Source of the DNA: Chloroflexota bacterium
Lineage (GTDB): Bacteria > Chloroflexota > UBA11872 > VXOZ01
DNA: 64,000 bases
Reading direction: 5' to 3'
Assembly: GCA_964291655.2 (NCBI GenBank)
Contig: OZ219802.1
Span: 864,001 to 928,000, forward strand
Every line of letters begins with the position of its first letter. Positions within the stretch are counted from its first letter, which is position 1. Of the stretch, positions 32,540 through 58,393 are shown one piece after another. The notes under the pieces are model-generated. The model did not search any database. It was not told where the DNA came from and saw only the letters and a list, made by a program, of their open reading frames with translations. Made by a program: the position numbers and the translations under genes.

Positions 32540-32736
32540 CTAGAAGCTATCTCATGAATCGACTCGATTAGCCGAATTGTGCTTCGACAAGGGCTTCGCG
32601 CAGCAGGCTTCGCGTAGCCCTCAGCACGAACGGGATATACCTTTTACGTTCGCCCCCGTATCGAGTACGGGGCAGGCTCTGAGCCTGTCGAAGGGCAATT
32701 CTACACGGAGCGATGTATCTATGGGATGAGTTCTAG
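32540..32736. mobile_element. MITE (family B), CTAG-flanked, with two nested mini-insertions
   Basis: Reverse complement aligns with 30315-30456 apart from 24-bp and 28-bp inserts and substitutions; the right CTAG contains the rlmD stop. Confidence 0.75.
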
Positions 32737-34067
32737 CAACGCCGAAAGAGTGCCAGGCTTTCAATATGGTACGTTTGCGGAAAGAAATCAAAGAGTTCCA
32801 GTCGTTCGACGCGGTATCCCTCTTCATGCAAGAGCGCTGTGTCACGCGCGAGCGTAGACGGCTCGCACGACAAGTAGACTATCCTGCTCGGGGCGCTGCC
32901 GGCCACAGCATGGAGCACACGGGGGTCCATGCCGGTGCGCGGCGGATCAACAATGGCAACATCTACGTCCGGCAGATCGTCCGTTACCTTTTCGGCGGGC
33001 AAGCCCCTAAAGTCGATGTTCTGCAGCCCCCAATGCCGCGCAGTTTGCCGAGCCGCTTCAATGGCTTGCTTGTCCACTTCGATGCCAATTACGTGCCGGG
33101 CGTCTGCCGCCATGAAAAGACCGAATATCCCGACCCCGCAGTAAAGATCGAGCACGGTCTCACTTTGTTGGACTGCCGCCAAAGTCCGCATGCGGGAGAT
33201 GGCAAGAGGCAACATCTCTACACTCGCTTGAAAGAATGCGCCGGGCGGAAATTGAATCGTCTTTCCCATGATCTCAATACCCACCATGGCCGGTCCGGCA
33301 AATGGCTCTACTGTGCCGCTCGGAGTCCGGTAGGAGACGCTCATAGCCTCCGGGATTGTGGTGAGGGCGTCCAGCACAGCGCCGAGTTCCGGTTCCGCAT
33401 CCAGGTCAACATTGCGCACGCCTTCCAGGATCAGCGCTAACTTTGCGGCGCCACCTTGAGGAATGACGCGCGTCTCCACCCAATTCTTTCCCCATAGATC
33501 GGGAATCCTGCCGTCACGGATCATCTCGTTGAGCGTTGCCAGCAACTTGGAGATGAGCGGATGGCTGATTGCACAATGTTCGACCTCGACGACGCGCCGG
33601 CTGCCGCGCTGCCGAAACCCCGCTTCTCGCGAAAGGGCAATTTCGCAGCCGTAACGATACTCCCACGGATTCTGAGGCCTGTGCACAGCGTCTATGGCTA
33701 CCGGCTGCTTGCCAATCCGGGCGAAGTGCTCTTCCACCACCTTTTGCTTTAGTCCCACCTGCGCCGCGTAGTCGATGTGTTGCCACTGGCAGCCGCCACA
33801 GGAACCATAGTATGTGCAGATCGGTTCGACTCTATCCGGTGAAGGGTCAAGCACGTCTACCACGTGCGCCTGCAGATACTTCTTGCGCTTCCGTTCCAGT
33901 TGTACTTTCACACGCTCCCCGGGTATACCATAGAACGCAAAGACCACTTTGCCGTCGATGCGGCCCACCGCCGGGCCACGATGTGCCATACCGGTGAGCG
34001 TCACTTCCACCGGTTCGCGTTCCCGGATCTTACGACCGCGACTCATTGATTCCCATCTCTTTTGCAC
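32733..34067 (-). CDS. rlmD: 23S rRNA m5U1939 methyltransferase (TRAM + 4Fe-4S)
   Basis: C..YGSCGGCQWQH, AFFQ, LDLYCGVG, VDPPRTG, YLSCEP.TLARD, FPQTYHIE; start may be 34046. Confidence 0.92.
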   Translation of the reverse strand: MQKRWESMSRGRKIREREPVEVTLTGMAHRGPAVGRIDGKVVFAFYGIPGERVKVQLERKRKKYLQAHVVDVLDPSPDRVEPICTYYGSCGGCQWQHIDYAAQVGLKQKVVEEHFARIGKQPVAIDAVHRPQNPWEYRYGCEIALSREAGFRQRGSRRVVEVEHCAISHPLISKLLATLNEMIRDGRIPDLWGKNWVETRVIPQGGAAKLALILEGVRNVDLDAEPELGAVLDALTTIPEAMSVSYRTPSGTVEPFAGPAMVGIEIMGKTIQFPPGAFFQASVEMLPLAISRMRTLAAVQQSETVLDLYCGVGIFGLFMAADARHVIGIEVDKQAIEAARQTARHWGLQNIDFRGLPAEKVTDDLPDVDVAIVDPPRTGMDPRVLHAVAGSAPSRIVYLSCEPSTLARDTALLHEEGYRVERLELFDFFPQTYHIESLALFRRC

Positions 34068-34437
34068 CCTCCCTAACGGCTACATGCGATCCGTGGGTTG
34101 ACGTATAATAGTCGGTCTAGTAGCGAGCGCCGCCATTCACCCGGTTTCACTACGAAGTCGCTACGTACCAGGCCCATCATCGGAACTTCCCTACAGAACT
34201 AAAACAATTAAACCAGAATTGCCGCAATGAGTATGTTGAGGCGTCAGCCGTCAGCAACGCCACATCTGAGGCATAGCGGGACTCCTTGGCGCAATGGGAG
34301 GAATCGTGACCGCGCCCTCAATGCCATCACATCGACCTTCCTCAGGCATCGCCCCTCCCCCAGGTCTCTCACGCCGTGTGGCGCGGCATGGAGAGCGCTA
34401 TACTGTACCCCAAAACCTTTAGGCTCGGAGGTGCGGG

Positions 34438-34803
34438 ATGGCATGGAAGCAGAGCGAAACGGCGGACGTGATAGACACGCCCGCTATCCACGAAGGGGAC
34501 GGTGTGATCACGCGCCGGAGATTCTTCCGGGACACCACGCGGCTGCCCGTCCGCGTCGAGATATGGGAACTGCCGCCGGGCGCGAGTGAGGGATCCCATA
34601 GCCACGACGGCGACGACGCGCTGGAGGAGTTTTACTACTTCATCGAGGGTCAGGGCATCATGTGGATGAATGGACAAGAACTGACGGTCCGAACGGGAGA
34701 CGCCGTCATGGCTCCTCCCGGGGTTGACCACGGCTTCCGCAACACCGGCGACGTAACGCTGAAGCTGCTCCTGATCTGGGGCGCACCGGCGGGAGAGTTG
34801 TAA
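34438..34803 (+). CDS. Cupin domain protein
   Basis: HSH...EEFYYFIEG and PPGVDHGFRNTG; GGAGG RBS. Confidence 0.9.
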   Translation: MAWKQSETADVIDTPAIHEGDGVITRRRFFRDTTRLPVRVEIWELPPGASEGSHSHDGDDALEEFYYFIEGQGIMWMNGQELTVRTGDAVMAPPGVDHGFRNTGDVTLKLLLIWGAPAGEL

Positions 34804-34874
34804 TACGCTGTAGCGCACCTTCGCGGTAAGCGTAACTTCCACCGGCTCCTGTTCTTGTACCATGAGTCCACGTC

Positions 34875-36101
34875 TCAAAGTGCTTCAGCCTCAATCCGCA
34901 GCAGCGCTTCAACCGTCCAACCAAGCAACCAGGCCAAGTTCTCAGGCGGGTGGGGCGTCGTTCTGCCGGTTATTTTGCGATATCCGCCTTGGTCGATGAA
35001 CTCTTCCGTCGCGTTCGCGAGCAACCACTCCTTGGCAACAGCTAACCTTGGGGCCAGACGCTCTTCTAAGTCTACGTCCACCCAGCCAACCGCGCGAATG
35101 TGATCGTAGGCCATTATTGCCGCCGCAGTCATGCCCAACCAATGGTCGTCCTGCATATGCATGCCGACGGCGCCATCGGGAAACTGACAGGAGAATTGCC
35201 ACTCCACCGAGCGGGTGCAGCGGTCGCGCATCACGGCCTCGCGCGGATGGTCTACCGGCAGACACATGTGCAATCGCGAGAGGAACTCCACGGCGCCCCG
35301 CGCCGAGAAACCCCAGCCGGTCTCATCCATGCGCACGCTGGGAAAGTGCTCAGCGGCAATCTCCGTCGGCCACGGCCCTATGCACCAGGTACCCAACGAG
35401 TCGAGAAATGCACCGTCCGGTGACCCCGGCAGATGAGATCGCAAGTAGTAGTCCGCCAAGCGCACCGCCGCAGCCAGCACGTCATCCCGCTTAGTCTGCT
35501 CGTAGTAGTGCACCAGCCCCATGCCGACCCACCGCAGGTCGTCAGTAAAAGCGCCGTCGGTGATGGCGGGGTCCTGGCAATTAGATGGCGGGTATCCGAT
35601 GTTGTACGCGTGGCCCCGGTCAGTCCGGTGCTGCTGCAAGTAGTCGAAGAGCGAGTCGGCGCGGGCGTCAAAACAGACCTCATCGGGATTGTGCAGACGA
35701 AACTCACCGTAGCACCACAGACCGACACCCTGCATCCAAGAGCGGCTGAAGAGGTTATTCACAGTGCGCGGATCGCCGACGCTCGTGGGATCCCGCTCCA
35801 TCCTCTGACTCAACCGCAGATTGCGCTGCCGGTCGGCCACCGGGGGTACCGGATCGCGCATGAAACTGAAAGAAAAGACCGCGTAGCGGTCCGCCGCTTC
35901 TTTGTAGCGGGCTTCGTTGGTGCGCTCATAGAGACGATAGAGCGCTTGTGCCAAGTACGGCGGCGAGTGGGCATGCGTGGGACCGAAGCTGCCACCGGTC
36001 GTGACGAACGGGCACTTTTCCGGGTCAGGCCGCCCAATGGCGCCTTGCCACGCAACGAAGCGGTCGCCGATCGAGCGCGCGACTGTGAGAGGATCACGCA
36101 T
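34875..36101 (-). CDS. Hypothetical protein, probable alpha/alpha toroid (six-hairpin glycosidase-like)
   Basis: 408 aa with repeated helical LYRLYE.T.E.RY / HYYE.T..D.L patterns and FTDDLRW. Confidence 0.6.
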   Translation of the reverse strand: MRDPLTVARSIGDRFVAWQGAIGRPDPEKCPFVTTGGSFGPTHAHSPPYLAQALYRLYERTNEARYKEAADRYAVFSFSFMRDPVPPVADRQRNLRLSQRMERDPTSVGDPRTVNNLFSRSWMQGVGLWCYGEFRLHNPDEVCFDARADSLFDYLQQHRTDRGHAYNIGYPPSNCQDPAITDGAFTDDLRWVGMGLVHYYEQTKRDDVLAAAVRLADYYLRSHLPGSPDGAFLDSLGTWCIGPWPTEIAAEHFPSVRMDETGWGFSARGAVEFLSRLHMCLPVDHPREAVMRDRCTRSVEWQFSCQFPDGAVGMHMQDDHWLGMTAAAIMAYDHIRAVGWVDVDLEERLAPRLAVAKEWLLANATEEFIDQGGYRKITGRTTPHPPENLAWLLGWTVEALLRIEAEAL

Positions 36102-36171
36102 TATCGCCTCACCATTCTCCTATGCATCTTGCCCCAGAGTGTATCCATGGCTCTGCTTCTTGTTCCCTCCG

Positions 36172-36194
36172 GTAGCGCAGGTTTGCAACCTGCG
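36172..36194 (+). repeat. GTAG REP (gtagcRcaggtttgcaacctgYg family)
   Basis: Copies at 43084, about 47524, 56991-57013, 57231-57253 and about 58310-58332. Confidence 0.85.
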
Positions 36195-36509
36195 ACTCTT
36201 CCCCTTGGCCCTGCCACAACCGCACCTGCCGAATGCCACTCACACCTGCAAGCCGTTCCATGCGGTCCGAACCTCGGTGGAAGCTTGAGTCTGCCGCCAC
36301 TCCCACCGCACGACTCGATTGCTCTCATGTCCTCCCATATTGTAACGTAGGCGCGTCAATCAAAGATGGCTACTCGAATCTGATACTGCCCAAACCGGAA
36401 ACATCCGTCATCCGTGTCAACGAGGCATCGCAGCGGATGTATGCCGGATAACTATTGAAAGTCGGTATAATGAAGCTAATCTCAACACAGTCTTCGAGGT
36501 AAAGAACCT

Positions 36510-37697
36510 ATGAAAATTGTTGACGTTCGCAGCTACGTGCTGAAGAGTCCACTTGGCGATCAAGGCTTCTACGCCTCACAAGAGTCCTTTTCCGAACGCA
36601 GTAGTTGCCTCGTGCGCATCGAGACGGACTCTGGTCTTATCGGTTGGGGAGAAGCAGGCCTCTGGGGCGCGCCGGAACCGGTAGCTGCCATGATCGACCA
36701 CGTCCTTACACCCCGCATTATGGGCATGAATCCATTGCACATGGACGTCATCTGGGAAAAACTGTACGCGCACATTCGCGATTGGGGACGACAGGGTACC
36801 GCCGTAGAAGCAATCAGTGGCGTGGACATCGCATGCTGGGATATTGCGGGGCAAGCGCTGGAGCAGCCAATTCATGCCCTGCTTGGCGGCGCGTATCGCG
36901 ACCGGGTGAAGGCATATGCGACCGGTGGCTACTACAAGGGTGGCCCGGAAAATTGGGCCGATACCGGAGCTTTGGCGGCGGAGGTCGAGCGGCACGTCGC
37001 CACGGGCTTTCGCGCACTCAAGATCAAAGTCGGCTTGCTCTCGGTGGCCGAAGACCTTGCCCGCGTAAAGGCTGCACGGCGTGCGCTCGATGCCTGTGCC
37101 CCCACCGGTGAACGCTTTCCCTACATGGTGGACGCCAACCATGCCTATCCGCCGCACATCGCCATCAAGGTCGGCCGTGGTTTAGAGGAAGAAGATACCC
37201 TGTGGTTTGAAGAACCGGTTATTCCCGAAGACCGCAGGGGGTACCGCAAGGTCGCCGAGACCCTCGACCTTGCCATCGCGGGTGGAGAGTGTGAGCACAC
37301 GCGATTCAGCTTCCGCGACCTCATCCTTGATGGCTGTATAGACATCGCGCAACCCGACATCTGCGGGACGGGCGGCATATCGGAAGCCGTCAAGATTGCT
37401 ACCCTCGCCCGCACATTCGGCGTTCAAGTGTTTCCACACGTCTGGGGGTCCGGTATTGCCTTGGCCGCCGCGTTGCATTTCATCGCGTCTCTGCCTCCCA
37501 GCCCCCACTCGGCCAACCCGTTGCCTGCCCTCAATGAACCCATGCTGGAATTCGACCGCAATCCGAATCCCTTGCGCGATACGCTGCTGCGTGAACCGTT
37601 CACCCTTGAGGATGACGGGGCGGTGCTAATTCCACAACGGCCGGGTCTGGGAATCGAGGTTGACGAGGCAGTGGTTACTCAATACGGACCGCAATAA
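36510..37697 (+). CDS. Mandelate racemase / muconate lactonizing enzyme family (likely acid-sugar dehydratase)
   Basis: AISGVDIACWDI, KIK, VDAN, WFEEP, GGE, QPD, PH. Confidence 0.92.
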   Translation: MKIVDVRSYVLKSPLGDQGFYASQESFSERSSCLVRIETDSGLIGWGEAGLWGAPEPVAAMIDHVLTPRIMGMNPLHMDVIWEKLYAHIRDWGRQGTAVEAISGVDIACWDIAGQALEQPIHALLGGAYRDRVKAYATGGYYKGGPENWADTGALAAEVERHVATGFRALKIKVGLLSVAEDLARVKAARRALDACAPTGERFPYMVDANHAYPPHIAIKVGRGLEEEDTLWFEEPVIPEDRRGYRKVAETLDLAIAGGECEHTRFSFRDLILDGCIDIAQPDICGTGGISEAVKIATLARTFGVQVFPHVWGSGIALAAALHFIASLPPSPHSANPLPALNEPMLEFDRNPNPLRDTLLREPFTLEDDGAVLIPQRPGLGIEVDEAVVTQYGPQ

Positions 37698-37997
37698 AAT
37701 ACTCGCGCAGGCTTGTTCAAAACTCGAGCATCTTCAATAGTTGCAGGGGTCTGGCAAAAGCGTTGGCACTTGCGGATGTCTCTTTCCTGCTGAGAACTGA
37801 ATGACACTCAGGATTTGCGGCAAGAGTGCCTCCTTTGTCCGTGGAGACCAATGTGCAATCCGAGCAGCAGGCGATAGGACTCCCTCTCCCTGGGGACACA
37901 TTTGCACAACCCAATCGACGGGCGGGAATTCCCCCTTCTCCCTGAGGAGGCTACTGCACAACCCAGGCGGAACGCGCGGCTCACTCCCTCTCCCTGG

Positions 37998-38530
37998 GGA
38001 GACCTTTGCAAAACCCATGTGGAAGGGAGATTGTCCCCTCTCCCTTGACGGGAGAGGGTTAGGGTGAGGGTGAAACTGCTCTGAGCACGAGCAACTTCTT
38101 GACCGGATTGGCTCTAATATGATTGACTGTGCAAGTTTTACGCTTTGCAAAGCAGATAAGACCCCTCACCCCGGCCCTCTCCCTGTACAGACCGGGGACA
38201 TAGGTAACAGTTGTTCGGGGACATGGGTTACACATTTTACTGATTGACACCTACGAGAGCATTGGGTTGGTCCGGGTTTGATAAGAGACTGGCGACACAG
38301 AGCGCTCACTATTCAGCCTGTCAGCTAGTGCCAGAGAAACAAACAGTGTGCATAAGGATATTGAGTGGATCTAACTTTCAAGGCAAGGACATCGCATACT
38401 ACGAAAATCCCCTCGTTCTATGGTGTTACCTATGAGCCCGAACATGTGTAACCCATGTACCCGGTCTATACACTCCCCAAGGAGAGGGGGTAATTCTTGC
38501 GCCTCCGGCCGGAGTTATGCAAAGGTCTCC
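37998..38530. mobile_element. MITE (family A, GGAGACCTTTGC ends) in a REP loop; contains two REPs and an IS481 MITE
   Basis: TIR ggagacctttgcaaaac / gttatgcaaaggtctcc, TGG duplicated on both sides; homologue at 50294-50529. Confidence 0.8.
38184..38472. mobile_element. Non-autonomous IS481-family MITE (289 bp)
   Basis: TGT..ACA ends closely similar over about 50 bp to both ends of the IS at 45903-47167; CTCCC direct repeat. Confidence 0.88.
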
Positions 38531-38633
38531 TGGGGGAGAGGGCCGGGGTGAGGGGAAACCGTAGGCGCTCCGGGCCAATTTCTCCCGCACTCCAGAGTTT
38601 TCCAATGCCTTCCTGACCGAGAGCCGTGCTTCC

Positions 38634-39767
38634 TCAGTCAAAGCGATTGAGGCCAAACATCCCAATATCGTGCCGCGACTCGCCGTCAAGCGCCATCTCA
38701 GCGACTATCTCCCCCACCACGCTGCAGAACTTGAAGCCGTGGCCGGAGAAACCCGCCGCAATCACAACGTTGGCATGTTCCGGATGATGGTCCATGATAA
38801 AATGTCCATCCGGCGTATTGGTGAACATGCACGTCTTCAATGCCAGCGTCGCTCCCATGCCGCCGGTAAGGTAATTCTGTGTACAAGCACGCAGTGCTTC
38901 CTCATCTTCAGGGTGGCATTCGCGGTCTACGTCGTCCGGTGCGGTCTGCTGCAAAAGGTGGTGGTACTTCCCAATCTTGAATCCTGGAATTCCGTGAATT
39001 GGGAAGCCGTAGTAATGTCCTTCCGGGACAAGACAGTTGAAAACCGGGAAGCGTTCCCGGTTGAATAGCTCCGGTTGCGCCGGTTGGAACCACCCCATGA
39101 CCTGGCGTTCAGGCACGGCGTTCTGGCGCAGCCGCGCAAGCAGGGACTGGCTCCAGGCGCCGGCAGTAAAGATTAGTCGCTTGGCAGTGTAGGTGGTGCG
39201 AGTGGTGCGGACCGTCACGCTTCCTTGATCTGCCTTCCAATCGACTACGGCTTCACGCGCCCGCACTTCCCCGCCCAACGCTTGTGCCTGCAGCACGTGA
39301 TGAACGATGCAGCGCTCCGGTAGCAGAAACCCGCCATCCGGCTGCCACACGGCCATCATCTCCGGCGGAAGGTTGAAGCCCGGGAAGCGTCGCGTCAATT
39401 CCGCACTTGTCAGCACCTCGTGTGCCAGTTCGTGTTCCTCGCAGGATTTCATCGAACCCTCGACAACGAACGAGTCAGGCGCACCGGCATCGATAGAGCC
39501 CGTGATATACAATAGCTGCTCGTCGCCGGCCTGCTCGAGTTCGCGCCAGAGCGCATACGCCCGCGCCAGCAGCGGCACGTATGAAGGGTGCTCGAAATAC
39601 GTGAGCCGGATGACGCGCGTAACGCCGTGCGACGACCCCATATCGTGGGGAATATCGAATTGCTCCAGTCCGAGGACTCGCTCGCCGCGCCGCGCTAAGT
39701 GGTAGACGGCAGCACTCCCCATGCCCCCTACGCCTACGACAATTGTGTCAAAGTGCTCTGCCTTCAT
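38634..39767 (-). CDS. solA: Monomeric sarcosine oxidase / N-methyl-L-tryptophan oxidase
   Basis: GVGGMG, GSSHG.TR.IR, TCMFTNTPD (FAD-linking Cys), GFSGHGFKF. Confidence 0.9.
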   Translation of the reverse strand: MKAEHFDTIVVGVGGMGSAAVYHLARRGERVLGLEQFDIPHDMGSSHGVTRVIRLTYFEHPSYVPLLARAYALWRELEQAGDEQLLYITGSIDAGAPDSFVVEGSMKSCEEHELAHEVLTSAELTRRFPGFNLPPEMMAVWQPDGGFLLPERCIVHHVLQAQALGGEVRAREAVVDWKADQGSVTVRTTRTTYTAKRLIFTAGAWSQSLLARLRQNAVPERQVMGWFQPAQPELFNRERFPVFNCLVPEGHYYGFPIHGIPGFKIGKYHHLLQQTAPDDVDRECHPEDEEALRACTQNYLTGGMGATLALKTCMFTNTPDGHFIMDHHPEHANVVIAAGFSGHGFKFCSVVGEIVAEMALDGESRHDIGMFGLNRFD

Positions 39768-39946
39768 TCTCTCTCATCCTTGCCCAATTTCGTCGATACA
39801 AGAGCAATCACCGTTCGTAGCGCTTCTCTCTCAGTGTACTCATGGAGCCGTACACGAGGTTACGTCTCGCACACTCCCTCGACACGACCAGCTCACCGGC
39901 ATCGTGCATGGGTGCAATTCCGGCGCTGGCAGCAGCAGTCTTTTCT

Positions 39947-40837
39947 CTAGAGTATTGGCTCAGGTCGAATTGAATCCAGCGGTATCTCCATCAAGTCCTC
40001 ACCGAGAATTGTCGTGCCGCCAAAGACCTCTGCCGCCTCGGCTAGCATGCGTTCCCTGATACCGGGCCGCGTAATCTGTTCGGTCAGGTGAATCAACACC
40101 AGCTTCTCAACACCTGCTTGAGCTGCCGTGCGCGCGGCGTCAAGATGTCCTGAGCACGACGAAGTTATGCGGGGATCCGTTTCAACGCCATTCAGAAAGT
40201 GGCACATGTGCAGGAGCACGTTGGCGCCGCGTGCCAGATCCACGAGTCGCGCGTTGGGGGCAGTGTCACCCGATACCACGATGCTTCCTTCAGGGCTATT
40301 GAATCGATACGCCACCGAATTGAGGTACGGCTGGCAATGGACCATGTCTGCAACCTGCACCTGCCAGTCGTTTCCATCGATTTGCGCCCCGGCATCCACC
40401 TCCCGCACCTGCGGCGCGGGGCGCTGGCGTGGGAGTTCGCCGCCCCGGTGTTCGTAGATCAAGTGACTGCCCGGATGGAGCGTGCGGCCTGCGAGATCCG
40501 CCTGAAAAGCGCCCTCTTCGCTAAAGAGCAGGTGTGTCATGTGCCGGAGACCTTCGGGACCAAAGACCTTCAGATCGGGTATTTGCCCAGCGCCTTGATC
40601 CCAGCGTGTGAGAACCAGGTAGCCGTAATCCATGCAGTGGTCATAGTGCAGATGGGTTAAGAAGACATGGGTAATTTTCGCAGGCGCTGCTCCCGTCGCT
40701 AGGAGACGCTGTACGGCCGCGGGCCCACAGTCGAATAGAAGCGAATCGCCTTCTCGTTCCACCAGGAAGCTGCAACCTGCGCGTTCCAGGGAAGGGGTTG
40801 GCGTACCGGTGCCAAGCAGGGTAAGTCGAAGCGACAT
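39947..40837 (-). CDS. MBL-fold metallohydrolase (RNase Z / arylsulfatase-like)
   Basis: LLGTGTP, FDCG, THLHYDH, SGDT, H...A..A..AGV.KLVLIH. Confidence 0.88.
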   Translation of the reverse strand: MSLRLTLLGTGTPTPSLERAGCSFLVEREGDSLLFDCGPAAVQRLLATGAAPAKITHVFLTHLHYDHCMDYGYLVLTRWDQGAGQIPDLKVFGPEGLRHMTHLLFSEEGAFQADLAGRTLHPGSHLIYEHRGGELPRQRPAPQVREVDAGAQIDGNDWQVQVADMVHCQPYLNSVAYRFNSPEGSIVVSGDTAPNARLVDLARGANVLLHMCHFLNGVETDPRITSSCSGHLDAARTAAQAGVEKLVLIHLTEQITRPGIRERMLAEAAEVFGGTTILGEDLMEIPLDSIRPEPIL

Positions 40838-43081: not shown

Positions 43082-43263
43082 CGGTAGCACAGGTTTGCAA
43101 CCTGTGGTCTTCCCGTCGCATTGGCACGATCGCCCAATTAACAAAAAGATAGCGCAGAGCCTGCCCCGTACATATAACGGGGTTGCAGACGTGCCCTCAG
43201 CCTGTCGAAGGGCCTCCGCTACCGGGGCTTGTGCCCATCGATGCAACTCTGTCGAACCATTAG
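43082..43263. mobile_element. Partial MITE (family C); its end overlaps the stop codon of the DMG oxidase gene
   Basis: Colinear with 47483-47741; ends tgtcgaaccattag; left TIR not found. Confidence 0.65.
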
Positions 43264-45710: not shown

Positions 45711-45902
45711 GGTGGGCTCTCCTCTGTAAATTCTAAGTTACCTGATCAACCGAAATCTCAAGCAATGAGGTCTTGCGGTCGCTGCCTGAATGTCAAGGCG
45801 TCTACAGGCGGCTGCCTTGGCTATCCCGTGTGACGACGCTCCCGTTAGCGGCGGCATGCAGCCGCGGGCTTCAGGAAAACCCCTCACCCTTGCCCTCTCC
45901 CC

Positions 45903-47167
45903 TGTACAGACCGGGGACATAGGTAACAGATGTTCGGGTAGATAGGTTACACATTTTGTGCTCTGAGGTCTATGGTTTTTACTCTTTGGATCGAGAAGTA
46001 CACGTCCCAGACACCGTCCGTTCGGGTGGGTCGCAGGGCGACTTGCTTGTGCGTGAAGGCCCTGCCCACACGGAGCCGTCTGCCTTGGAAGGAGATGCGG
46101 CCGGAGACATCGACGCTGCGTACGCGGTCGTCGGGAGCGTAGGCGAGGGCAGGCAAGGTCTCTGGGAAAGGGCGAGGACTAGGCGTGTATCTGGTAATGG
46201 GAGTGTCGAGATCGAGGGCATGGTGTGGGCGTTCCAAGTTGTAGAAGTGGCGCCAGGTGTCAAAGGCGCGCTGGCAATGGTCCAGGTCGGTAAAGGTGGT
46301 CCCTGCCAGCAGTTCGCTCTTGAGGGAGCGGTGGAAGCGTTCCAGCTTGCCGAGTGTCTGGGGATGGTAGGGTCGGCTGTGCAGGACGTTGATGCCCAGC
46401 TGCATGAGCCAGACGGTGAGGGGCGTGAAGGGCTGGGCACTGTCGTTACCCCAGGGAGAGCCGTTGTCCATGAGCATGGCCTGGGGCAAGCCGTAGCGGC
46501 GAAAGACAGCGGTGAGGCGGTCTTGGACCGTCTCTCCCCGCTCGTTGGCACAGGCCTGTAACCCGAGGTTGAAGCGGGAGTGATCGTCTAGGAGGGTGAG
46601 AGGATGACAGCGGTTCTGCTGCATGACGAAATGTCCCTTGAAGTCCATCTGCCACAGCTCGTTGGGCTGGGGTCGTTCGAAGCGCACATGGGGCGTGTGC
46701 TTGGCGCTCTGGGCTGGATCGATGAGCCCATGGCGTTTGAGAATGGCATTGATGGTGCTCTTGGCCGGCACGTCGGTATGCCCCTGGTCCTGCAGCATTC
46801 TGCGCAGCACATGGGCGCCCTTCGTAGGATGCGCCAGACGCAGCGCGATGATGCGTTCCTCCATCGCCGGGCGCGTGCGGTGCGGACACGTGTGCGTGCG
46901 GTGCGAACGGTCACGCAGGCTCTGCGCTCCCCCCGACGCGTACCGCCGCAACCACTTGTAGCCAGTCTTGCGGCTGATGTTGAACCGACCGCACAATTCG
47001 CTCATTCTCACCGCGCCACTATTGGCCAGAGCAATAAACTCTTCCCGGGCAGACATAAGCGTTTCCACCTTCCACGACATGGTCATCCTCCCGCTGCAAG
47101 ATTCTCCATGCCTATAGGTGTAACCTATCAACCCGAACAAGCGTTACCCATCAACCCGGTCTATACA
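45903..47167 (-). mobile_element. IS481-family insertion sequence (1265 bp) inserted in a REP
   Basis: TGTA(C/T)AGACCGGG TIRs; 6-bp CTCCCC direct repeats at 45897-45902 and 47168-47173. Confidence 0.95.
45947..47080 (-). CDS. IS481-family DDE transposase
   Basis: MSWK..,ISRKTGYKWL HTH, LWQMDFKG, DNG, PQTLGKLERFH, YN..RPH; stop codon lies in the end repeat. Confidence 0.95.
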   Translation of the reverse strand: MSWKVETLMSAREEFIALANSGAVRMSELCGRFNISRKTGYKWLRRYASGGAQSLRDRSHRTHTCPHRTRPAMEERIIALRLAHPTKGAHVLRRMLQDQGHTDVPAKSTINAILKRHGLIDPAQSAKHTPHVRFERPQPNELWQMDFKGHFVMQQNRCHPLTLLDDHSRFNLGLQACANERGETVQDRLTAVFRRYGLPQAMLMDNGSPWGNDSAQPFTPLTVWLMQLGINVLHSRPYHPQTLGKLERFHRSLKSELLAGTTFTDLDHCQRAFDTWRHFYNLERPHHALDLDTPITRYTPSPRPFPETLPALAYAPDDRVRSVDVSGRISFQGRRLRVGRAFTHKQVALRPTRTDGVWDVYFSIQRVKTIDLRAQNV

Positions 47168-47225
47168 CTCCCCCAGGGAGAGGGTACAGAGTGCGGTTCC
47201 CAGTGTGCAAGGTACGGCTCCGGTT

Positions 47226-47482: not shown

Positions 47483-47741
47483 CTAGTAGTTCGACATTTT
47501 TGCATTGATGGGCAGGAACACCGGTAGCACAGGTTTGTAACCTGTGCCCAGCCCCGCGGTCTCGTGTGCTCGCTCCACGCTACGGCAAGATGGCGCAGAG
47601 CCTGCCCCGTGCGTGACACGGGGTTGCAAACGTGTACTGAGCACTTCGGCACAGGCCTGTGCTGAGCCTGTCGAAGCGCTCAGTACAGACTCTGTCGAAG
47701 GAACTACGCTACCTATCAATACAATCGTGTTGAACTACTAA
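47483..47741. mobile_element. MITE (family C) with about 33-bp imperfect TIRs and nested REPs
   Basis: ctagtagttcgaca...tgttgaactactaa; inverted homologue at 58140-58393. Confidence 0.8.
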
Positions 47742-50293: not shown

Positions 50294-50529
50294 GGAGACC
50301 TTTGCGCAACTCAAGCGGTAGCGAAATAGTTCCCTCTCCCTCGACGGGAGAGGGCTAGGGTGAGGGTGGATCTCCTGAAATCTCTCCATATGCACACCAA
50401 ATCTGCCCTGATACGTCTTGACACTGACCAGCGTAAAGGGCCATCGTAGCAAGAAGACCCCCTCACCCCAACCCTCTCCCCCAGGAGAGGGAGTGCCCTG
50501 CTTGAAAGTGGGGTTATGCAAAGGTCTCC
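50294..50529. mobile_element. MITE (family A) in a REP loop, containing two uninterrupted REPs
   Basis: ggagacctttgcgcaac / gttatgcaaaggtctcc; TCGA duplicated at 50290-50293 and 50530-50533. Confidence 0.82.
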
Positions 50530-50616
50530 TCGAGGGAGAGGGCCGGGGTGTGGGTGTATCTCCGCAATCCGGCTCACTCCCACGGTCTTGGCACAGTCAA
50601 GCCAAGGTCTCCTTAT

Positions 50617-52119: not shown

Positions 52120-52187
52120 TCCGTCGCTTCTATCCTCTCCGTCTAAGAACGTGTTCGCTAATCTTCTATCAATTAGGATTGGATGCC

Positions 52188-52236
52188 CGTTCGCCCTGAG
52201 CCTGCCTGTCCTGAGCTTATCGAAGGGTCGGAGGGC
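52188..52236. repeat. CTGAGCYTGTCGAA hairpin with a 23-bp copy of itself nested inside
   Basis: cgttcgccctgagcct[gcctgtcctgagcttatcgaagg]gtcggagggc. Confidence 0.7.
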
Positions 52237-52284
52237 ATGCATAGCCCGGACAAGTGCCCTACCAAGTCTTCTCGCCGCCAATGG

Positions 52285-52794
52285 CTATTGTGAAGGCTCC
52301 GAACGCTCGCTTAGTCTCATCATGTAGACAATGCTGCGGTTGAGCGGCTCGAACCCTTGCCGCTCGTACATGCGGCGGGCGGGCTCGTAGCAGTCTTCCA
52401 GCCCGGTTGACACTTGAGCAAACTCCATCCCCGCTTCCGCGATGAGTTCCAAAACGCGTGCGTCTAGCCGCCCGCCAATACCGTGCCCACGATACTCCGG
52501 CAACACGGCATTGTTGCCCACCGTCCCGATGCGCGTCTCTTCGTTGACGTGATAGGTGGCAAAGCCCACCGCCTTGCCCTCAACTTTGGCAATCACCACG
52601 TTGTTGATGTCAATCGTGCGCATGTCGTCGGCTTTCCACTCGTCCCACGTACGCCCGCCGATGATGCCGTAGCGCTCTTCGCGCCAGCGATTGACGGTAA
52701 CTTCCGCGAACCCGCGCACGATGAGCTCGATGAGCGTCCCGCGGTCTGCCTCAACAGCGCGCCGGATTGTCACGTCTGTCGCACTCATGGTCAT
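52285..52794 (-). CDS. GNAT N-acetyltransferase
   Basis: AVLPEYRGHGIG motif A; ARRMYERQGF. Confidence 0.92.
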   Translation of the reverse strand: MTMSATDVTIRRAVEADRGTLIELIVRGFAEVTVNRWREERYGIIGGRTWDEWKADDMRTIDINNVVIAKVEGKAVGFATYHVNEETRIGTVGNNAVLPEYRGHGIGGRLDARVLELIAEAGMEFAQVSTGLEDCYEPARRMYERQGFEPLNRSIVYMMRLSERSEPSQ

Positions 52795-53276
52795 GGGGTG
52801 TCCTGTGCGAGCTTTTTCATGTAGCAGATGCTACGGAAATACGGCGTGAATCCCTGCCGCTCGTACATACGGCGGGCGGGCGCGTACGGTTCATCTAGAC
52901 CGGTCGTGACCTGTGCGAACTCCATGCCGGCCTCCTCCAACTGTTTGAGTACACACGCCAGTAGCTGCGCGCCAACGCGCGTCGAGTCATCCAACTCATA
53001 GGTCGCAAAACCGACTGCCTTGCCGGCAACTTCGGCTATCATGACCTTGGAAACGTCAATCGTGCGCATGATGTCGGCTTCCCACTCCTCCCACGGGCGA
53101 CCGCCAATAGCACCAAACTGCTTTTCGCGCCGGCGATTGGTGGTTACGTCCGCAAATGCGCGTACGATGAGATCTGCCAATGTGTCTCGGTCAGCTTCTG
53201 CGGCCAGACGGACTCGACTCTCGACAGCGATCTTCGTGACACCCTGTTTCTCCAAGTACCACTGTCTGTTCACCAT
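52791..53276 (-). CDS. GNAT paralog with in-frame deletion of motif A (possible pseudogene)
   Basis: Colinear with the neighbouring GNAT but lacks the 17 residues TVGNNAVLPEYRGHGIG. Confidence 0.75.
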   Translation of the reverse strand: MVNRQWYLEKQGVTKIAVESRVRLAAEADRDTLADLIVRAFADVTTNRRREKQFGAIGGRPWEEWEADIMRTIDVSKVMIAEVAGKAVGFATYELDDSTRVGAQLLACVLKQLEEAGMEFAQVTTGLDEPYAPARRMYERQGFTPYFRSICYMKKLAQDTP

Positions 53277-53361
53277 TGATAGATACTTGTCAAGGACAGG
53301 TCATGCATGAGAGACTCAAGACAATTGACGTCTGTCCCCCCTTGCAAGATGTCTCATTGAT

Positions 53362-54471
53362 CTACTTCCTAAAGTCCTTCACCGCCTTGATTAGTTTCAT
53401 CCCGGCGGTCCAAGTAAGTTCCTCTCCTTCAAAGTCTGATCTGTACAATCCTTGAAGATTGGATGGCACAGGGATCCTTCGATCCCACAACAGTACCACA
53501 CGCTCTTTGTACAAGACGAATGCAGCACCGATTTCAATCAAGACATTTTCGTTGAGAGAAAACGACCCATTACTGTCCTTCCTGTTTTCATCAACCGAGA
53601 CGATAATGATTGCTGCTGTACAGTCATGCATTGCGTTGAGCACTTTATGCGGTACAGGTATGGCGGTTGATTCCTCGCCTTCCGCAATCTTTGTCTCAAT
53701 GTCTAGAGTATCAAGAATAGTCTCAACCTGATCGAGGATGTCTTTGTTACTTCCATGAGAAATGAAGACCCGCATCTCTTGTCGGGTAGCTGTAAGAGAT
53801 TCCTCCAAGTTCTCCTCTATGGAAATGTCGGCGTTCTCTGATTGTTCTTCCAAGGGCGCGTCTTCTTGCGCCATTTCGCGCGATGGTGAATCCACCAACA
53901 TCTCCGATTGCTCAGCAGGATCATCTAGTCCAGTCAAGGTCTCAGGTGACCGATTTACAAATTGCGACACCGCATCCATGTCCAGTTCCAAGCGTGTGGA
54001 CTGCCCCCTACGACCTATTTTGTATTCACCTAGACCCGCTCCATCAGCTAAGTGAAAAAAGCAGACGGCGTTATCCTTAATGGTATTCTCTTTCTCCGAA
54101 CCCAGTCCTTCTCGATAGTTCTCGTGCCAAAAACTCGCTATATCCACATTGCTAATGGACTCCAGATCCTGATTGTAGGCCCACTCCAATGCGTAGCTGT
54201 AAAGACGAACCTGCCGCACACACCCCTGTAACACCTCTCGCTCAGTCTCGGGCTTACGAGCCAAACTCCAGCCAATCTCCGTCAGCTTCATTCGATCGTT
54301 TTCTCTGGTTATCAGACCCCAGATCTCATAAGCATTAACTTTCCGAGGGTCCAGAACTTGCTTCTTAACAATTGATTTGGCTTCTTTTATTGATGCGCCC
54401 ATCGGCTTGTTTTTCAAAAACTTCACCAAGTCACGCACATCATCGACTGTGGTTAGTACAGGCAAGGACAT
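53362..54471 (-). CDS. TIR-domain protein (CAP12/Pycsar-type TIR) with putative winged-helix N-terminus
   Basis: VFISHG, AAIIIVSVD, NENVLIEIG, VPSNLQG; visibly lower GC than flanks; GGAGG RBS. Confidence 0.85.
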   Translation of the reverse strand: MSLPVLTTVDDVRDLVKFLKNKPMGASIKEAKSIVKKQVLDPRKVNAYEIWGLITRENDRMKLTEIGWSLARKPETEREVLQGCVRQVRLYSYALEWAYNQDLESISNVDIASFWHENYREGLGSEKENTIKDNAVCFFHLADGAGLGEYKIGRRGQSTRLELDMDAVSQFVNRSPETLTGLDDPAEQSEMLVDSPSREMAQEDAPLEEQSENADISIEENLEESLTATRQEMRVFISHGSNKDILDQVETILDTLDIETKIAEGEESTAIPVPHKVLNAMHDCTAAIIIVSVDENRKDSNGSFSLNENVLIEIGAAFVLYKERVVLLWDRRIPVPSNLQGLYRSDFEGEELTWTAGMKLIKAVKDFRK

Positions 54472-54830
54472 AATTGCAGGCCTCCTTCGTCAACTGTCCT
54501 AACTACTTCTTCGCACCACCGTGCTACTAACGCTGTTATTCGACGACTTAACTATACAACAACGTCATAAGAGGCGCAATAGGCAATCGCCTATTTTCCC
54601 CATATATCTATAATAACTCGGGGGTAAGCTAGTGTTTGTACTCGTTCGAACCACAATCAACGCCGAGATTATCTATTGACACTTTGGTCTGTATTTCTCC
54701 ATAAAGCGTGATTAGTGACAATGGAGTGTTGACGATTTTCGCCAGCAAAATCTTGAGAGCACTATAGTGGTTCGTTAAACAGCTAGCAGAAGGGTGAGGG
54801 CTGTGCGTGAATTCCCCACAGCCCGGAATC

Positions 54831-56840
54831 TCACGTGGACGAGACCCAGATCGGACTCGACCAGGCGACATGGCCGTCGGCCTGCGTCGCGCGCAAGTAG
54901 AAGTAAGAGGTCTGATCACCTGTAAGAGGGAGCGTCTTGGCGAGCGTGGCGACGCAATCCGTGGCGGGCTGACTCAAGACGACACTGCCGTTGCAGACCA
55001 AGTCTAAACGAATCAGAGGAGCCGTGCCAAGTACGCGCGCCGTCACCGCTACGTCAGGCGCGGCCGAAGAAAACTCCTCACCCATACCGTGGCCGTCCAC
55101 ACGAAAATCCAGCACAATGCGTGCGCCGGTGGTGGCGTAGCAGCGGCGTTTCCTGAGGGCCTCGATGATTGCCTCGCGGGTGAGTTCCGGCGCAATAATA
55201 GCAGTGAGACCGCCGGTCATGTAGTCGTGAAAGTCAACGCCTGCCATGGAGCAGGTGTTCCTGCCGGGCTGGGCATGGTGGCTGTCGGTGCCGCCCACAA
55301 AGCCGAGGCGGTGTCCCATGGCCAGAGCGTCCTGGGCGGAAGCGCCACCGCCGCCAATCACGGTCGCACCGCCGGGTTCATCCGTCTCGAACGCCCCGCG
55401 GTTTTGCGCTAGCTCCAAGACAGTCTGGTACTTAGGATTGTGGCGCTGCCAGTCCTGCACCTGCCAATTCTGATAGCCACCCTCGGAAGTCACATTGATA
55501 TGGTGCGGTACCACCACGGCGCCAGTACCCTCCAGCGCCGGCCAGATTTCCTCGATTGTGCTGGTCGTTATGCGCTTTCCTTCATCGGGATAGAGAATTA
55601 CCCGATGGCCTGCGCTCGGATCGCTCAATTCGACAGCCACCAGCGGCACGAACTGTCCGGCTGCATGGAACTGCGCAATGATCGCCTGATACTCTTCCCA
55701 GTCGTCCGCCCGTGGCACAGACCAGATGGCCTCGATATTCTGCGGCGGCGGAAACCACGCCACGCCGACGCAGTCGAGACCGGAAACGTCCCGGGCATAG
55801 CGAAACGCCTCGGCATATGTGCCGATACCGTGCGCCATGAAGGGGCCGTGGGGGCGGTGACCGGGATCTAGGGCGCGAGGCGCATGGGTGTGCAGATCGC
55901 CAAAGAAGATGCGGTCGCTGCCAGTTTCAACAACGTCAATCGGATTGCTAACGCCGGATATACCTGCTTCCCACGCCGCGGCCGTAACCGTGATCGGGCC
56001 TGCCGCGTTTCTGGAAACGATGAATGACCCAGTCCGCGCCGTGCCGCCATCGCCCGCCGCAAGGGCGAAAGGCGCAAGTCCACTGATGCCGCCCGGCTTT
56101 GCACCCAGAGCGACTTCTCCTGCGAAGTCCGTACAGACATTGCCATACGCATCTTCAACCCGCACCAGTACTGTGAACTCTTCACCGGCAGCAACCGTGG
56201 CAGGGGCAATCACACCGAGGCGCGCAGGCGGTCCCGCGACGACATCCACAACCGGCAACTCCGGCAGCAGGCGATAGCCTTTCGGATCGCCGCCGGGATA
56301 GCGCGGATTGCTATAGCTGGCATTGCCCAGGACGTCCACGAGCACCTGGAAGTACATCTCGTGCATGGCGACTTCCTGCGCACGTGCACGCTCGAAGAAG
56401 CCCGGTATGAACGATCCGGCATCACCGATCGTCACCGCGATCTCTTGGCCCGGTTGCAGCGCTGCGCCTTCCACCGTCACGAACACACAGGGGAACTGCG
56501 AGTGATGGTACTTGAGAGGATAAGCATTTCGTAAGCTAACCGAAACTCCGCAGCGACCGCTCGTGGTCGCCGTAACGTGGCCGAGACGCCACCGTACGCT
56601 GTGCACGCAGGGCGGCACCACCGCGATGCCCCCACCGGGCGCGATGCCGGCACTTCCCGCCGTATACGTGAGTGTCCACGTGCCAAACGCACCTGCAACG
56701 ACTGGATCGGCCGGACTCAGCGCACACATGCCAAGCTCAGCCTGCAAAGTTGCTTGCGTTTCTTCCGCCGTTACCTGCACACCATGGGTAACACCCTGGT
56801 CTTGAGATGCAGGTGGCGCCGATTTCGTGCTTTTGCTCAC
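54831..56840 (-). CDS. DUF3604 / PHP-like metallohydrolase with N-terminal beta domains
   Basis: FGDLHTH, GHR, PHH, GFVGGTDSH, RRCYATTG, AWSSPIW. Confidence 0.85.
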   Translation of the reverse strand: MSKSTKSAPPASQDQGVTHGVQVTAEETQATLQAELGMCALSPADPVVAGAFGTWTLTYTAGSAGIAPGGGIAVVPPCVHSVRWRLGHVTATTSGRCGVSVSLRNAYPLKYHHSQFPCVFVTVEGAALQPGQEIAVTIGDAGSFIPGFFERARAQEVAMHEMYFQVLVDVLGNASYSNPRYPGGDPKGYRLLPELPVVDVVAGPPARLGVIAPATVAAGEEFTVLVRVEDAYGNVCTDFAGEVALGAKPGGISGLAPFALAAGDGGTARTGSFIVSRNAAGPITVTAAAWEAGISGVSNPIDVVETGSDRIFFGDLHTHAPRALDPGHRPHGPFMAHGIGTYAEAFRYARDVSGLDCVGVAWFPPPQNIEAIWSVPRADDWEEYQAIIAQFHAAGQFVPLVAVELSDPSAGHRVILYPDEGKRITTSTIEEIWPALEGTGAVVVPHHINVTSEGGYQNWQVQDWQRHNPKYQTVLELAQNRGAFETDEPGGATVIGGGGASAQDALAMGHRLGFVGGTDSHHAQPGRNTCSMAGVDFHDYMTGGLTAIIAPELTREAIIEALRKRRCYATTGARIVLDFRVDGHGMGEEFSSAAPDVAVTARVLGTAPLIRLDLVCNGSVVLSQPATDCVATLAKTLPLTGDQTSYFYLRATQADGHVAWSSPIWVSST

Positions 56841-56889
56841 TATTGCGCTCCTGTGCAGCGAGTGCAGCCCGATGACCTATCGTTATTCC

Positions 56890-57253
56890 GTAGCGCGGGG
56901 GCTTGTCCCCCGCCTCTTTGCCATCCACCGACCTAGACAACAAACTTTAGGCTCCGGGACTTTCTCGCACTTGCCCAATGGCAAGGCTGGCGCAGGTTAC
57001 AAACCTGCGCTACCGGACTTCTCTCCTTCACGTTGACATTCCCACAATCCCGTTTGGCAGGCAAGATTACCCCCTCGTTCTATGGTGTTACCTATGTGCC
57101 CGAACATGTGTAACCCATGTATCCGGTCTATACAGGGAGAGGGCCGGGGTGAGGGGAAATCCTCACTGCTTCAGCCTATTTCCCCGCTTCCGACACTCAT
57201 TACCCAAGAGTCTCTCACGGGCCAGGTGGTCGCAGGTTGCAAACCTGCGCTAC
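56890..57253. repeat. REP cluster (three GTAG REPs and a half CCCTCACCC REP)
   Basis: 56890-56913, 56991-57013, 57135-57156, 57231-57253. Confidence 0.8.
57071..57134. mobile_element. Solo end of the IS481 MITE
   Basis: 62/64 identical to 38409-38472 and abutting a half REP. Confidence 0.85.
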
Positions 57254-57307
57254 CGGGACTACGTAGCTGGTAATGTGCTACCGTTCCTGTCTCCCACCGA
57301 GGCAATA

Positions 57308-58078
57308 TCACACGCCAAACAGCCGCGCCGCATTTTCGTGAAATAGCTTCTGCTTGACCGCGTCCTCAATCTGCGATTCGGTCTCGATGCTAAGCTTTGC
57401 CGATTCATGGTAGTGCAGCGGTGAGTTGGAGCCAAACAGCACGTGGTCCGGGCCAATGGTGCTACACAGCTTCGCCACGTCGTGGATGGGCCCCTGCACG
57501 CGACTGTTTTCTGCACACAAATTTTCGCGCTTGTCGACGCTCCGCCAAATGCTCGTAACCTCTCCAAATCGCCCGCCAGTGACGAGAAAACGCACCTGCG
57601 GGAAAGCGTTGACGGTCTGCGCAATGTCCCCGGCCCCCACGTCCGGGACTATTACGAGCCGGTGGTGATGCCGCACGTCCTCCAAGCCGATTGCGATCAT
57701 CACAAGCAAGTCGTGTTCGCGCGCGATCTCCAGCAAGCGCAAGTTCTCCTGCCCCAACAGTTCGTAGCCATGGTAATTGGGGTGCAGACGCAGGTTCTTG
57801 GCGCCGAGTTCATCGAGGCATATCTCCAGGTCTTCATCCCATCCCGGATACCCAGGGTTGATAGTGTACGCCGGGATGAAACGGTCCGGATGCGCCTGTG
57901 CAATCTCGTGCAGTTCCCGGTTGCCGACGAGCAGATCTTTAAAGAAGACGTTCTCCAAACGCGAAACCACGGCCTTTTCAATGCCGAGTGAGTCCATCTT
58001 ACGCAGCAGGTTGTCCGGCTGGGAGTGCGGCAGGCGGCGAAACGGCCACTCGCCGACGTAGGCGTTGCTATCAATCAT
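57308..58078 (-). CDS. Amidohydrolase_2 family protein lacking the HxH motif
   Basis: IDSNAYVG.WPFR, RLHPNYHGY, VLFGSN.P. Confidence 0.85.
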   Translation of the reverse strand: MIDSNAYVGEWPFRRLPHSQPDNLLRKMDSLGIEKAVVSRLENVFFKDLLVGNRELHEIAQAHPDRFIPAYTINPGYPGWDEDLEICLDELGAKNLRLHPNYHGYELLGQENLRLLEIAREHDLLVMIAIGLEDVRHHHRLVIVPDVGAGDIAQTVNAFPQVRFLVTGGRFGEVTSIWRSVDKRENLCAENSRVQGPIHDVAKLCSTIGPDHVLFGSNSPLHYHESAKLSIETESQIEDAVKQKLFHENAARLFGV

Positions 58079-58139
58079 GTCGCATCATCCCTCGCTTCAC
58101 GAGTCTAACTCCCTCTCCGGTGGGAGAGGCAAACGCCGC

Positions 58140-58393
58140 CTAGTGGTTCGACACGATTGTATTGATGGGTAGCGCAGTCCCTTCGACAGAGCCTGTACTG
58201 AGCCTGCCGAAGTGCTCAGGACACGTTTGCAACCTCGCATCACGTACGGGGCAGGCTCTGCGCAATCTTGCCGTAGCGCGGGGCGAGCACACCGAACCGA
58301 AATGCTGGGCACAGGTTGCAAACCTGTGCTACCGGAGTTCCTACCCATCCACCGGTGCTCCTACCCATCACTGCAAAGATGTCGAACCACTAG
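58140..58393. mobile_element. MITE (family C), CTAG-flanked; supplies the stop codon of the amidohydrolase gene 58390..59175
   Basis: 14-bp perfect TIR CTAGTGGTTCGACA extending to about 33 bp imperfect. Confidence 0.85.

Follow-up and report, generated by a model that had tools for sequence, protein, structure and literature searches.

Nested hairpin modules of 14 to 28 nt in a Chloroflexota genome, which probably insert as units at short sites

Hairpin modules at the analysed locus

The stretch of DNA analysed here (the window, 64,000 nt) belongs to the genome of a Chloroflexota bacterium, referred to as G000, which comprises 3.47 Mb in two contigs (C1 and C2) with 59% G+C; the window corresponds to G000:C2:864001-928000. 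It contains larger hairpin repeats in which short blocks are present in some copies and absent from others (Table 1). These blocks probably belong to a group of tiny, non-autonomous DNA modules that range from 14 to 28 nt. The module M24 (AGCCTGCCCCGTACTCGATACGGG) has 24 bp and consists of a 6-nt tag, AGCCTG, followed by a hairpin whose 7-bp stem encloses a 5-nt loop (CCCCGTA-CTCGA-TACGGG). Our reading, which we hold with a probability of roughly 0.7, is that the modules insert as units at short sites (AG|G in the case of M24, the bar marking the junction) and do not duplicate the target.

A first-pass annotation of this DNA had described a 24-bp extra block at 32655-32678 in comparison with the paralogous repeat at 30315-30456, and it was found as described. 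In the global alignment of 30301-30470 with the reverse complement of 32531-32745, exactly two clean blocks differ, one of 24 bp (M24) and one of 28 bp. The latter corresponds to two tandem 14-nt modules and folds into one hairpin (-10.9 kcal/mol, z -2.9). Public sequencing runs were examined as assembled contigs, which break at repeats; a contig of run X5 covers 32489-33000 with zero differences. In G008, the genome of a close relative which is 94-97% identical to G000 over a syntenic 20 kb, the ortholog of the M24 site at 32655 is also filled. The site at 30407 is empty in G000, while the G008 ortholog carries the 14-nt module TGCTGCGCGAAGCC, and in contigs of run X8 the letters of the 14-mer follow position 30406.

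Three further M24 copies lie, in agreement with the annotation, in homologous copies of what it called a family-C MITE (miniature inverted-repeat transposable element). These copies are GTAG-tagged repetitive extragenic palindromes (REPs; GGTAGCGCAGGTTTGCAACCTGCGC) with M24 in one arm and a 23-nt hairpin, the layer-1 module, in the other. The annotation had further proposed that the three copies show 0, 1 and 2 nested layers at one site. This holds for the number of layers, as the second site carries 23, 47 and 72 nt, respectively, but the innermost layer adds 25 nt and not 24. We could confirm that the hairpin cttcgacag|gctcag is split by the 24-bp AGCCTGTACTGAGCCTGCCGAAGT at 58190-58213 and is itself the 23-nt layer-1 module. 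The two REPs that had been listed as intact (gcgcag|gttgcaaac at 36172 and 57231) are near variants, gcgcaggtttgcaac and tcgcaggttgcaaac; the window yielded no exact match to the string, which occurs 14 times genome-wide. A copy of the repeat free of any module lies outside the window at C2:648444-648593.

Table 1. Positions of modules and their host repeats (window coordinates unless marked C2)
Feature	Position	Strand	Remarks
Host a, larger hairpin repeat, filled copy	32540..32736	-	
Host a paralogue	30315..30456	+	Lacks M24 (around 30366) and the 14-mer (30407)
M24 (AGCCTGCCCCGTACTCGATACGGG)	32655..32678	-	Filled gctcag|ggcgaac, one arm of the hairpin repeat
Two tandem 14-nt hairpin modules (GGCTTCGCGCAGCA, GGCTTCGCGTAGCC; 28 bp)	32592..32619	+	At cgacaag|ctcagcacgaac
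M24	43158..43181	+	One arm of GTAG-tagged REP, gcgcag|gttgca; G008 ortholog filled
Layer-1 module, 23 nt	43191..43213	+	Other REP arm, gttgcagac|ctccgctacc; no further layer
M24	47599..47622	+	Homologous REP copy
72-nt block	47632..47703	+	Layer-1 module with two nested layers (24 + 25 nt)
REP copy without module (gtcgcaggttgcaaacctgcgctaccgg)	57213..57250	+	
47-nt block	58178..58224	+	Layer-1 module (58178-58189 and 58214-58224) split by a 24-nt module
M24b (AGCCTGTACTGAGCCTGCCGAAGT)	58190..58213	+	At cttcgacag|gctcag
M24	58234..58257	-	Weakened stem; differs from the search pattern by 2 mismatches
22-nt unit (examples)	C2 1226103, 1650427, 1892771		
Separate 42-nt element (examples)	C2 1372501, 2011612, 2111951		

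Anatomy and copy number of the modules

The M24 hairpin has a predicted folding energy of -7.4 kcal/mol (z -3.1), and the ends of the module (AGCCTG and ACGGG) are not inverted repeats. With a search pattern that leaves the loop free, 51, 77 and 103 copies were counted in G000 at 0, 1 and 2 mismatches, respectively, while the reversed pattern used as a control gave 0, 0 and 1. M24 does not stand alone. The window contains M24b, an AGCCTG-tagged relative of 23 or 24 bp (AGCCTGTACTGAGCCTGCCGAAGT), and the 23-bp layer-1 hairpin. M18, an 18-nt hairpin (AGCGTATCGACACGATAC), was seen inside M24 only, and 20 occurrences of the M24-M18 junction were counted when up to 2 mismatches were allowed. A hairpin module of 14 nt (GGCTTCGCGCAGCC) stacks in tandem in one to three units. 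A 22-nt unit is composed of a 14-nt hairpin, AGCGACTCTTCGCT, and an 8-nt direct repeat, CGGAGCGC, and is located within hairpins of the type cattccgaacgg...gcggaatc. Rfam gave no family match for the whole window at gathering thresholds, or for 30200-33000 at E up to 1.

The size classes also emerged from an indel scan of the genome, in which every position was considered as a left 13-mer, d bases and a right 13-mer, and the joined 26-mer was required elsewhere in the genome. Peaks were obtained at d = 22, 23, 24 and 42 nt (107, 53, 71 and 118 matches), with only 0-4 matches each at 19, 20, 25 and 26 nt. Among the 35 events of 24 nt, 17 are M24 and 10 originate from a single tandem array at C1:768 kb. 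The 42-nt peak is a mixture of M24 carrying M18, tandem arrays and a separate 42-nt element (TCAACACTGCCAATTTGGGAGAG...TTAC). The boundaries of the latter are ambiguous by up to 8 nt, which resembles a target duplication and is unlike M24.

Compensated stem variants of M24 are few: at stem pair 7, A-T is replaced by G-C once and by T-A once, in counts that are contaminated by composite copies.

Target site and nesting

In the window, all junctions follow CAG, with a boundary ambiguity of at most 1-2 nt and without duplication. The annotation had made this a rule. The absence of a target duplication and the preceding CAG hold in the window, but genome-wide a C at position -3 is present in only 29 of 77 copies. 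For a wider survey, the G000 copies were pooled with 120 loci of other genomes holding the exact 24-mer, and the resulting 227 distinct flanked copies fell into 68 flank clusters, each of which was given one vote. An A at -2 was found in 52 of the 68 clusters, a G at -1 in 49 and a G at +1 in 62, while a C at -3 occurs in only 27. The target of M24 is AG|G, not CAG. In the four main host repeats the insert has exactly 24 nt, with 0-1 nt ambiguity and no duplication, at the sites gctcag|ggcgaac, gcgcag|gttgcaaac, ggttag|ggtgaggg and ggcgaaa|gccggaat. As a weak trend, and not as a rule, the junction coincides with the 3' end of the loop of a hairpin (stem of at least 5 bp): this was observed in 7 of the 68 contexts, as compared to 2.1 +/- 1.4 in shuffled pairings (maximum 8).

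The nesting follows from the target sequences. The reverse complement of M24b contains CTTCGGCAG|GCTCAG (cttcggcag|gctcag), which repeats the target of M24b itself, CTTCGACAG|GCTCAG. Thus, M24b brings along a new site in the opposite orientation when it inserts. In addition, the palindromic REPs offer GCGCAG|G on both strands; one of these sites is occupied by M24 and the other one by the 23-nt module. In locus L206, on a contig labelled Desulfobacteraceae, two M24 units are arranged head to tail and the second lacks its first A; this tandem form is as expected if a unit inserts at A|G of the tag of another unit.

Evidence that the modules move

M24 was found with identical boundaries in the 68 unrelated flank contexts, which have nothing in common beyond AG|G. 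While most copies lie in multi-copy repeats, some are at unique sites. The copy at C1:345588-345611 (locus L125) is in frame (SLPRTGYW) near the C-terminus of a helicase-like gene, a 950-aa open frame at C1:345300-348149 encoding a ResIII/Helicase_C protein, at the unique site GTCAAC|GGCAAC. Automatic alignment with the ortholog in the related genome G006 gave a net 15-nt gap, which we read as an apparently empty GTCAAC|GGCAAC together with an unrelated difference of 9 nt within an Asn-Gly repeat. Further M24 copies were found at unique intergenic sites, and for the copies at unique sites insertion is the only sensible reading.

The helicase-like gene was found in only two of the 16 relatives from the genus, and it is therefore probably located on a mobile island.

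The comparison with G008 allowed us to look for filled and empty orthologous sites, as had been recommended with the annotation. In total, 60 G008 loci with 64 M24 sites were considered, and for 51 of these sites a G000 alignment spanned the site. Two of them, L082 (1251 bp, 93.3% identity) and L051 (764 bp, 90.7%), are filled in G008 and show an exact 24-nt gap in G000. In the opposite direction, four G000 sites without a counterpart among these G008 loci were tested. L150 is filled in G000 and empty in G008, with a clean 24-nt gap between flanks that are almost identical and bear no trace of a conversion tract. L148 is likewise filled in G000 and, by eye in a poor alignment, empty in G008, while L149 gave no alignment. 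Altogether, four orthologous 24-nt differences separate G000 and G008, three of them clean and one judged by eye. Another exact 24-nt gap, L070, was not counted, since the alignment of 274 bp at 84% identity was taken as paralogous.

At the fourth G000 site, L147, both genomes are filled and diverged, and G008 has extra letters, absent from G000, which resemble the 23-nt module. Two family-C copies, those at 43158 and 47599, fall in the stretch compared with G008, and both have M24 in the syntenic G008 contig; the site at 43158 is within an aligned block, and the one at 47599 is spanned by no alignment. Both G008 units (G008:C53:3053-3076 and 6178-6201, compared with 47599 and 43158) have the loop GCGTGAC, whereas one of the two G000 copies has the loop ACATATA. 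The identical loops in G008 hint at conversion between neighbours.

The second gene with a module in frame is folC (C1:239062-240609), in which a host-a repeat lies between the regions for Mur_ligase_M and Mur_ligase_C (loci L126 and L131-L146). Across the 16 genus genomes the linker varies from 129 to 453 nt, with variable content: M24, M18, a 15-nt block and tandem repeats of the GTxHSEE type. M24 is at the identical place in six genomes (G000, G008, G003, G012, G006 and G001, the last with M18 inside), and in five others (G004, G007, G005, G014 and G016) the host site is empty, with an exact absence of 24 nt. In G010 and G011 the whole linker is missing. The 15-nt block is present in four genomes, at the site where non-coding copies have the 14-mer. 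On a tree of folC, calculated with the linker removed, the M24 state requires at least three changes. Precise excision of modules is plausible and perhaps likely. The suggestion of the annotation that a length of 24 nt would preserve the reading frame within genes is thus borne out in two real genes, folC and the helicase-like gene. Taken together, the data support its view of discrete units, far shorter than MITEs, which are gained, and perhaps also lost, precisely, without target duplication, and are nested in each other.

Distribution among taxa

Two samples were used, one of 40 relatives in addition to G000 and, separately, one of 301 genomes spread evenly over the phylum. At up to one mismatch, M24 was detected in all 16 genus genomes, in six of seven genomes of family f6 and in none of 17 from four other families, with at most one match in the controls. 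In the phylum sample it was present in 19 of the 301 genomes and in six of 171 genera. Even within one family the distribution is patchy, with M24 in 5/5 genomes of genus g8 versus 0/12 of g10; g1, g6 and g12 are further genera with the module, and g4, g5 and g7 are others without it.

The exact 24-mer also occurs in contigs of 40-55% G+C labelled Syntrophaceae, Deltaproteobacteria, Desulfobacteraceae or Gammaproteobacteria, including metagenome-assembled genomes (MAGs) labelled Desulfobacterota, and in one IMG/VR contig. In the contigs labelled as other phyla it is located in different hosts, hairpins of the type GTCATTCC...GGAATCCAG. Such letter-perfect identity over these distances argues for horizontal spread or for a strong sequence-specific constraint.

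Proposed mechanism and alternatives

We propose that a nuclease or strand-transferase acting on folded single-stranded DNA moves the modules in trans; it would cut the target 3' of AG and would release the end of the module by a cut 3' of GGG. Most of the copy number may result from riding on larger repeats which multiply. One candidate enzyme is a Y1 transposase of the HUH (histidine-hydrophobic-histidine) superfamily, of the type of the REP-associated tyrosine transposases (RAYTs), although it has no support in these genomes.

The annotation had favoured this enzyme class, in the form of a resident RAYT or IS200/IS605 TnpA that cuts and pastes the hairpins as single-stranded DNA. We regard this as doubtful. 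The anatomy of M24, which resembles that of REPs in having a 5' tag next to its 7-bp stem, would fit, as would the absence of a target duplication, and by analogy to E. coli TnpAREP, which cleaves 5' or 3' of a REP and performs strand transfer in vitro (PMC3333891), a comparable enzyme could handle M24. GTAG-tagged REPs are abundant in G000 (GGTAGCGCAGG, 105 occurrences), and the genome harbours one Y1 gene, outside the window (C2:2523382-2524059), with 82.2 bits for the NCBIfam model REP_Tyr_transpos (cut-off 80) and 30 bits for PF01797. However, this gene is flanked not by M24 but by hairpins of the type GCGGGCG-N3-CGCCCGC, which account for four of the five genomic copies of that hairpin. 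Close orthologs (at least 78% identity) are present in only six of the 16 genus relatives, while M24 is present in all 16. PF01797 was not found in seven of the nine M24-bearing genomes outside the genus (G023, G033, G039, G284, G307, G315 and G268), which have 3 to 69 exact-arm copies (69 in G315, 57 in G039), nor in G009 with its 22 copies at up to one mismatch, in a search that covered several fragmented genomes and may miss divergent RAYTs, since the G000 protein itself reaches only 30 bits. Conversely, M24 is absent from genus g7, in which Y1-like matches to the RAYT protein of G000 were obtained. In a tblastn search with this protein, no homolog was detected in 121 M24-bearing loci of other genomes (0.92 Mb). 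TnpB was not found, and a strand bias between the replichores is absent, with forward and reverse M24 copies mixed in every decile of C2. The Y1 mechanism is thus unsupported by the surroundings of the RAYT-like gene and by its poor co-occurrence with M24.

The modules could also lack mobility of their own. That they were born once in larger repeats, spread with the copying of these repeats and were shuffled by gene conversion seems quite unlikely to us, although four host repeats hold most of the copies, and empty and filled host copies coexist (63/10, 14/6, 84/18 and 48/1), so that donors for conversion exist. Such passive spread does not account for the 68 flank clusters sharing only AG|G, for the unique site in the helicase coding sequence and the unique intergenic sites, for the L150 difference with its near-identical flanks, or for the same 24-mer in different host hairpins on contigs of 44-50% GC labelled Syntrophaceae or Deltaproteobacteria. 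Local origin through template switching during replication at hairpins (fold-back copying), with no movement at all, has the structure of some modules in its favour: M18 can be read as AGC, followed by the 7 nt before the module in reverse complement, by CA and by a second copy of the 6 nt before the module, and it was seen only in the interior of M24; M24b joins a linker to the reverse complement of the site that it targets; and the tag AGCCTG reverse-complements the CAGGCT located 3 nt upstream in host a. Nevertheless, M24 is letter-identical in hosts b, c and d and at unique sites, which have no complementary flank, all M24b copies repeat the same linker letters, and local synthesis cannot give identity across phyla. 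We consider template switching unlikely as the general explanation, but it may explain the first formation of the inner modules. Finally, copying through RNA by a reverse transcriptase, which Elhai and colleagues reportedly proposed for cyanobacterial SDR (small dispersed repeat) elements, appears very unlikely here. G000 has two RVT_1 matches, and one of them, a reverse transcriptase of 578 aa that has YADD and, towards the C-terminus, an HNH-like motif (C1:354043-354729, locus L291), lies between the unique-site M24 copies at 345.6 and 357.8 kb of C1; further, stem pair 7 shows 13 G-T pairs versus one A-C. But this proximity is a single case, and the protein reads as a putative group II intron protein, which would act on its own intron. 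Over all stem pairs the wobble counts are balanced (27 versus 29, with contamination by composite copies), and no poly-A or other marks of retro-copies are visible.

Insertion as units at short sites remains our preferred reading, and several points weigh against it. Most copies lie in multi-copy host repeats, so many of them are not independent events, and conversion between paralogous copies could yield some of the orthologous differences. The four differences between G000 and G008 are not polarised by an outgroup, as the more distant genomes lack the whole host repeat. The folC tree is based on a single gene, and fewer than three changes could suffice if lineages have recombined. M18 and M24b consist largely of their own flanks in inverted form, in agreement with an origin by local template switching. 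Because the sequencing runs were seen as contigs only, filled and empty alleles within a population are not visible. Finally, no enzyme was identified for the movement of the modules.

With respect to the enzyme, it is conceivable, though we offer it as a speculation with the odds against it, that M24 is a 24-nt transposable unit spreading between phyla by means of an enzyme class other than Y1 HUH that has not yet been linked to transposition; such an enzyme would recognise a tagged hairpin in single-stranded DNA and join it seamlessly at AG|G. If true, M24 would be among the smallest horizontally spreading mobile elements known.

Genes near the modules and the RAYT-like gene

The genes between paired M24 copies are ordinary ones, with no transposase recognised by eye. 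A 1.3-kb insertion sequence within the window (45880-47190) encodes a 397-aa transposase of DDE integrase type, IS481-like by its motifs, and has at least 17 further copies in G000 with 91-100% identity. It was set aside as an enzyme candidate (window 45.9-47.1 kb) in view of its DDE integrase-type motifs. At the RAYT-like gene, three 68-bp tandem repeats (C2:2523980-2524170; L001 2000-2190), each with one GCGGGCG-N3-CGCCCGC hairpin, overlap the 5' end of the gene and encode the N-terminus of the protein.

Comparison with known small repeats

The modules share features with several described repeat families. Like REPs, bacterial interspersed mosaic elements (BIMEs) and REP doublets (REPINs), which are associated with RAYTs, M24 is a tagged stem-loop of 20-40 nt in high copy number, in a genome with one RAYT-like gene. 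However, its tag is AGCCTG, and not GTAG or CGTC as given for REPs in PMC3733652, while the host REP (GGTAGCGCAGG...) does carry GTAG. For the E. coli TnpAREP, single-stranded cleavage on either side of the REP and strand transfer in vitro are described in PMC3333891 and PMC8266576. In contrast to such systems, the RAYT gene is not flanked by M24 and M24 does not co-occur with Y1 genes; the unit which is gained is single, not a doublet, and is found also inside genes.

With the palindrome-associated transposable elements (PATEs) derived from IS200/IS605, M24 has in common the hairpin, the lack of target duplication and the insertion 3' of a short motif. PATEs have two subterminal hairpins and at least 100 nt, whereas M24 is one hairpin of 24 nt; moreover, for M24 no TnpB and no strand bias were found, and its target has only 2-3 nt. 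From classical MITEs it differs by the lack of both terminal inverted repeats and target duplication. The in-frame position in an essential gene is reminiscent of the Rickettsia palindromic elements, which have about 100-150 bp and are tolerated in frame within essential genes; here, the folC linker contains M24 together with M18. To our knowledge, a modular or nested organisation has not been described for the Rickettsia elements. The variable in-frame occupancy of folC is important since it means that modules can remodel linkers of essential proteins.

The closest known kind are the SDR elements of Nostoc and its relatives (Elhai et al. 2008, Genome Res 18:1484). SDRs are 21-27 nt long, hairpin-forming and nested, and occur within MITEs and beside short tandem repeats; reportedly, they are confined to one cyanobacterial subgroup. 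For SDR5, a later paper by the same first author (PMC4390886) describes precise insertion between the third and fourth nucleotide of the highly iterated palindrome HIP1. The present modules resemble SDRs in size class (14-28 nt here, 21-27 nt for SDRs), predicted hairpin, self-nesting (0, 1 or 2 layers and M18 in M24), embedding in MITEs, 14-mer tandems, precise insertion at a fixed short site and recent mobility, and no moving enzyme is known for either. They differ in that they belong to another phylum, have other sequences and use AG|G rather than HIP1 as a target, and in that the 24-mer is found also in MAGs labelled as other phyla. In our literature searches, modules of this type were not found described for Chloroflexota.

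Since the cyanobacterial SDRs were reported in 2008, the way in which repeats of little more than 20 bases can move has been an open question. The clade studied here offers a real test, since its 24-nt unit has sharp limits, the target AG|G is simple, and a single genus provides many closed genomes in which orthologous sites are filled or empty. In addition, the patchy distribution among genera makes a search for a co-distributed enzyme feasible. The modules of G000 are thus best placed beside the SDR elements, as a further, mechanistically unsolved case of the same kind.

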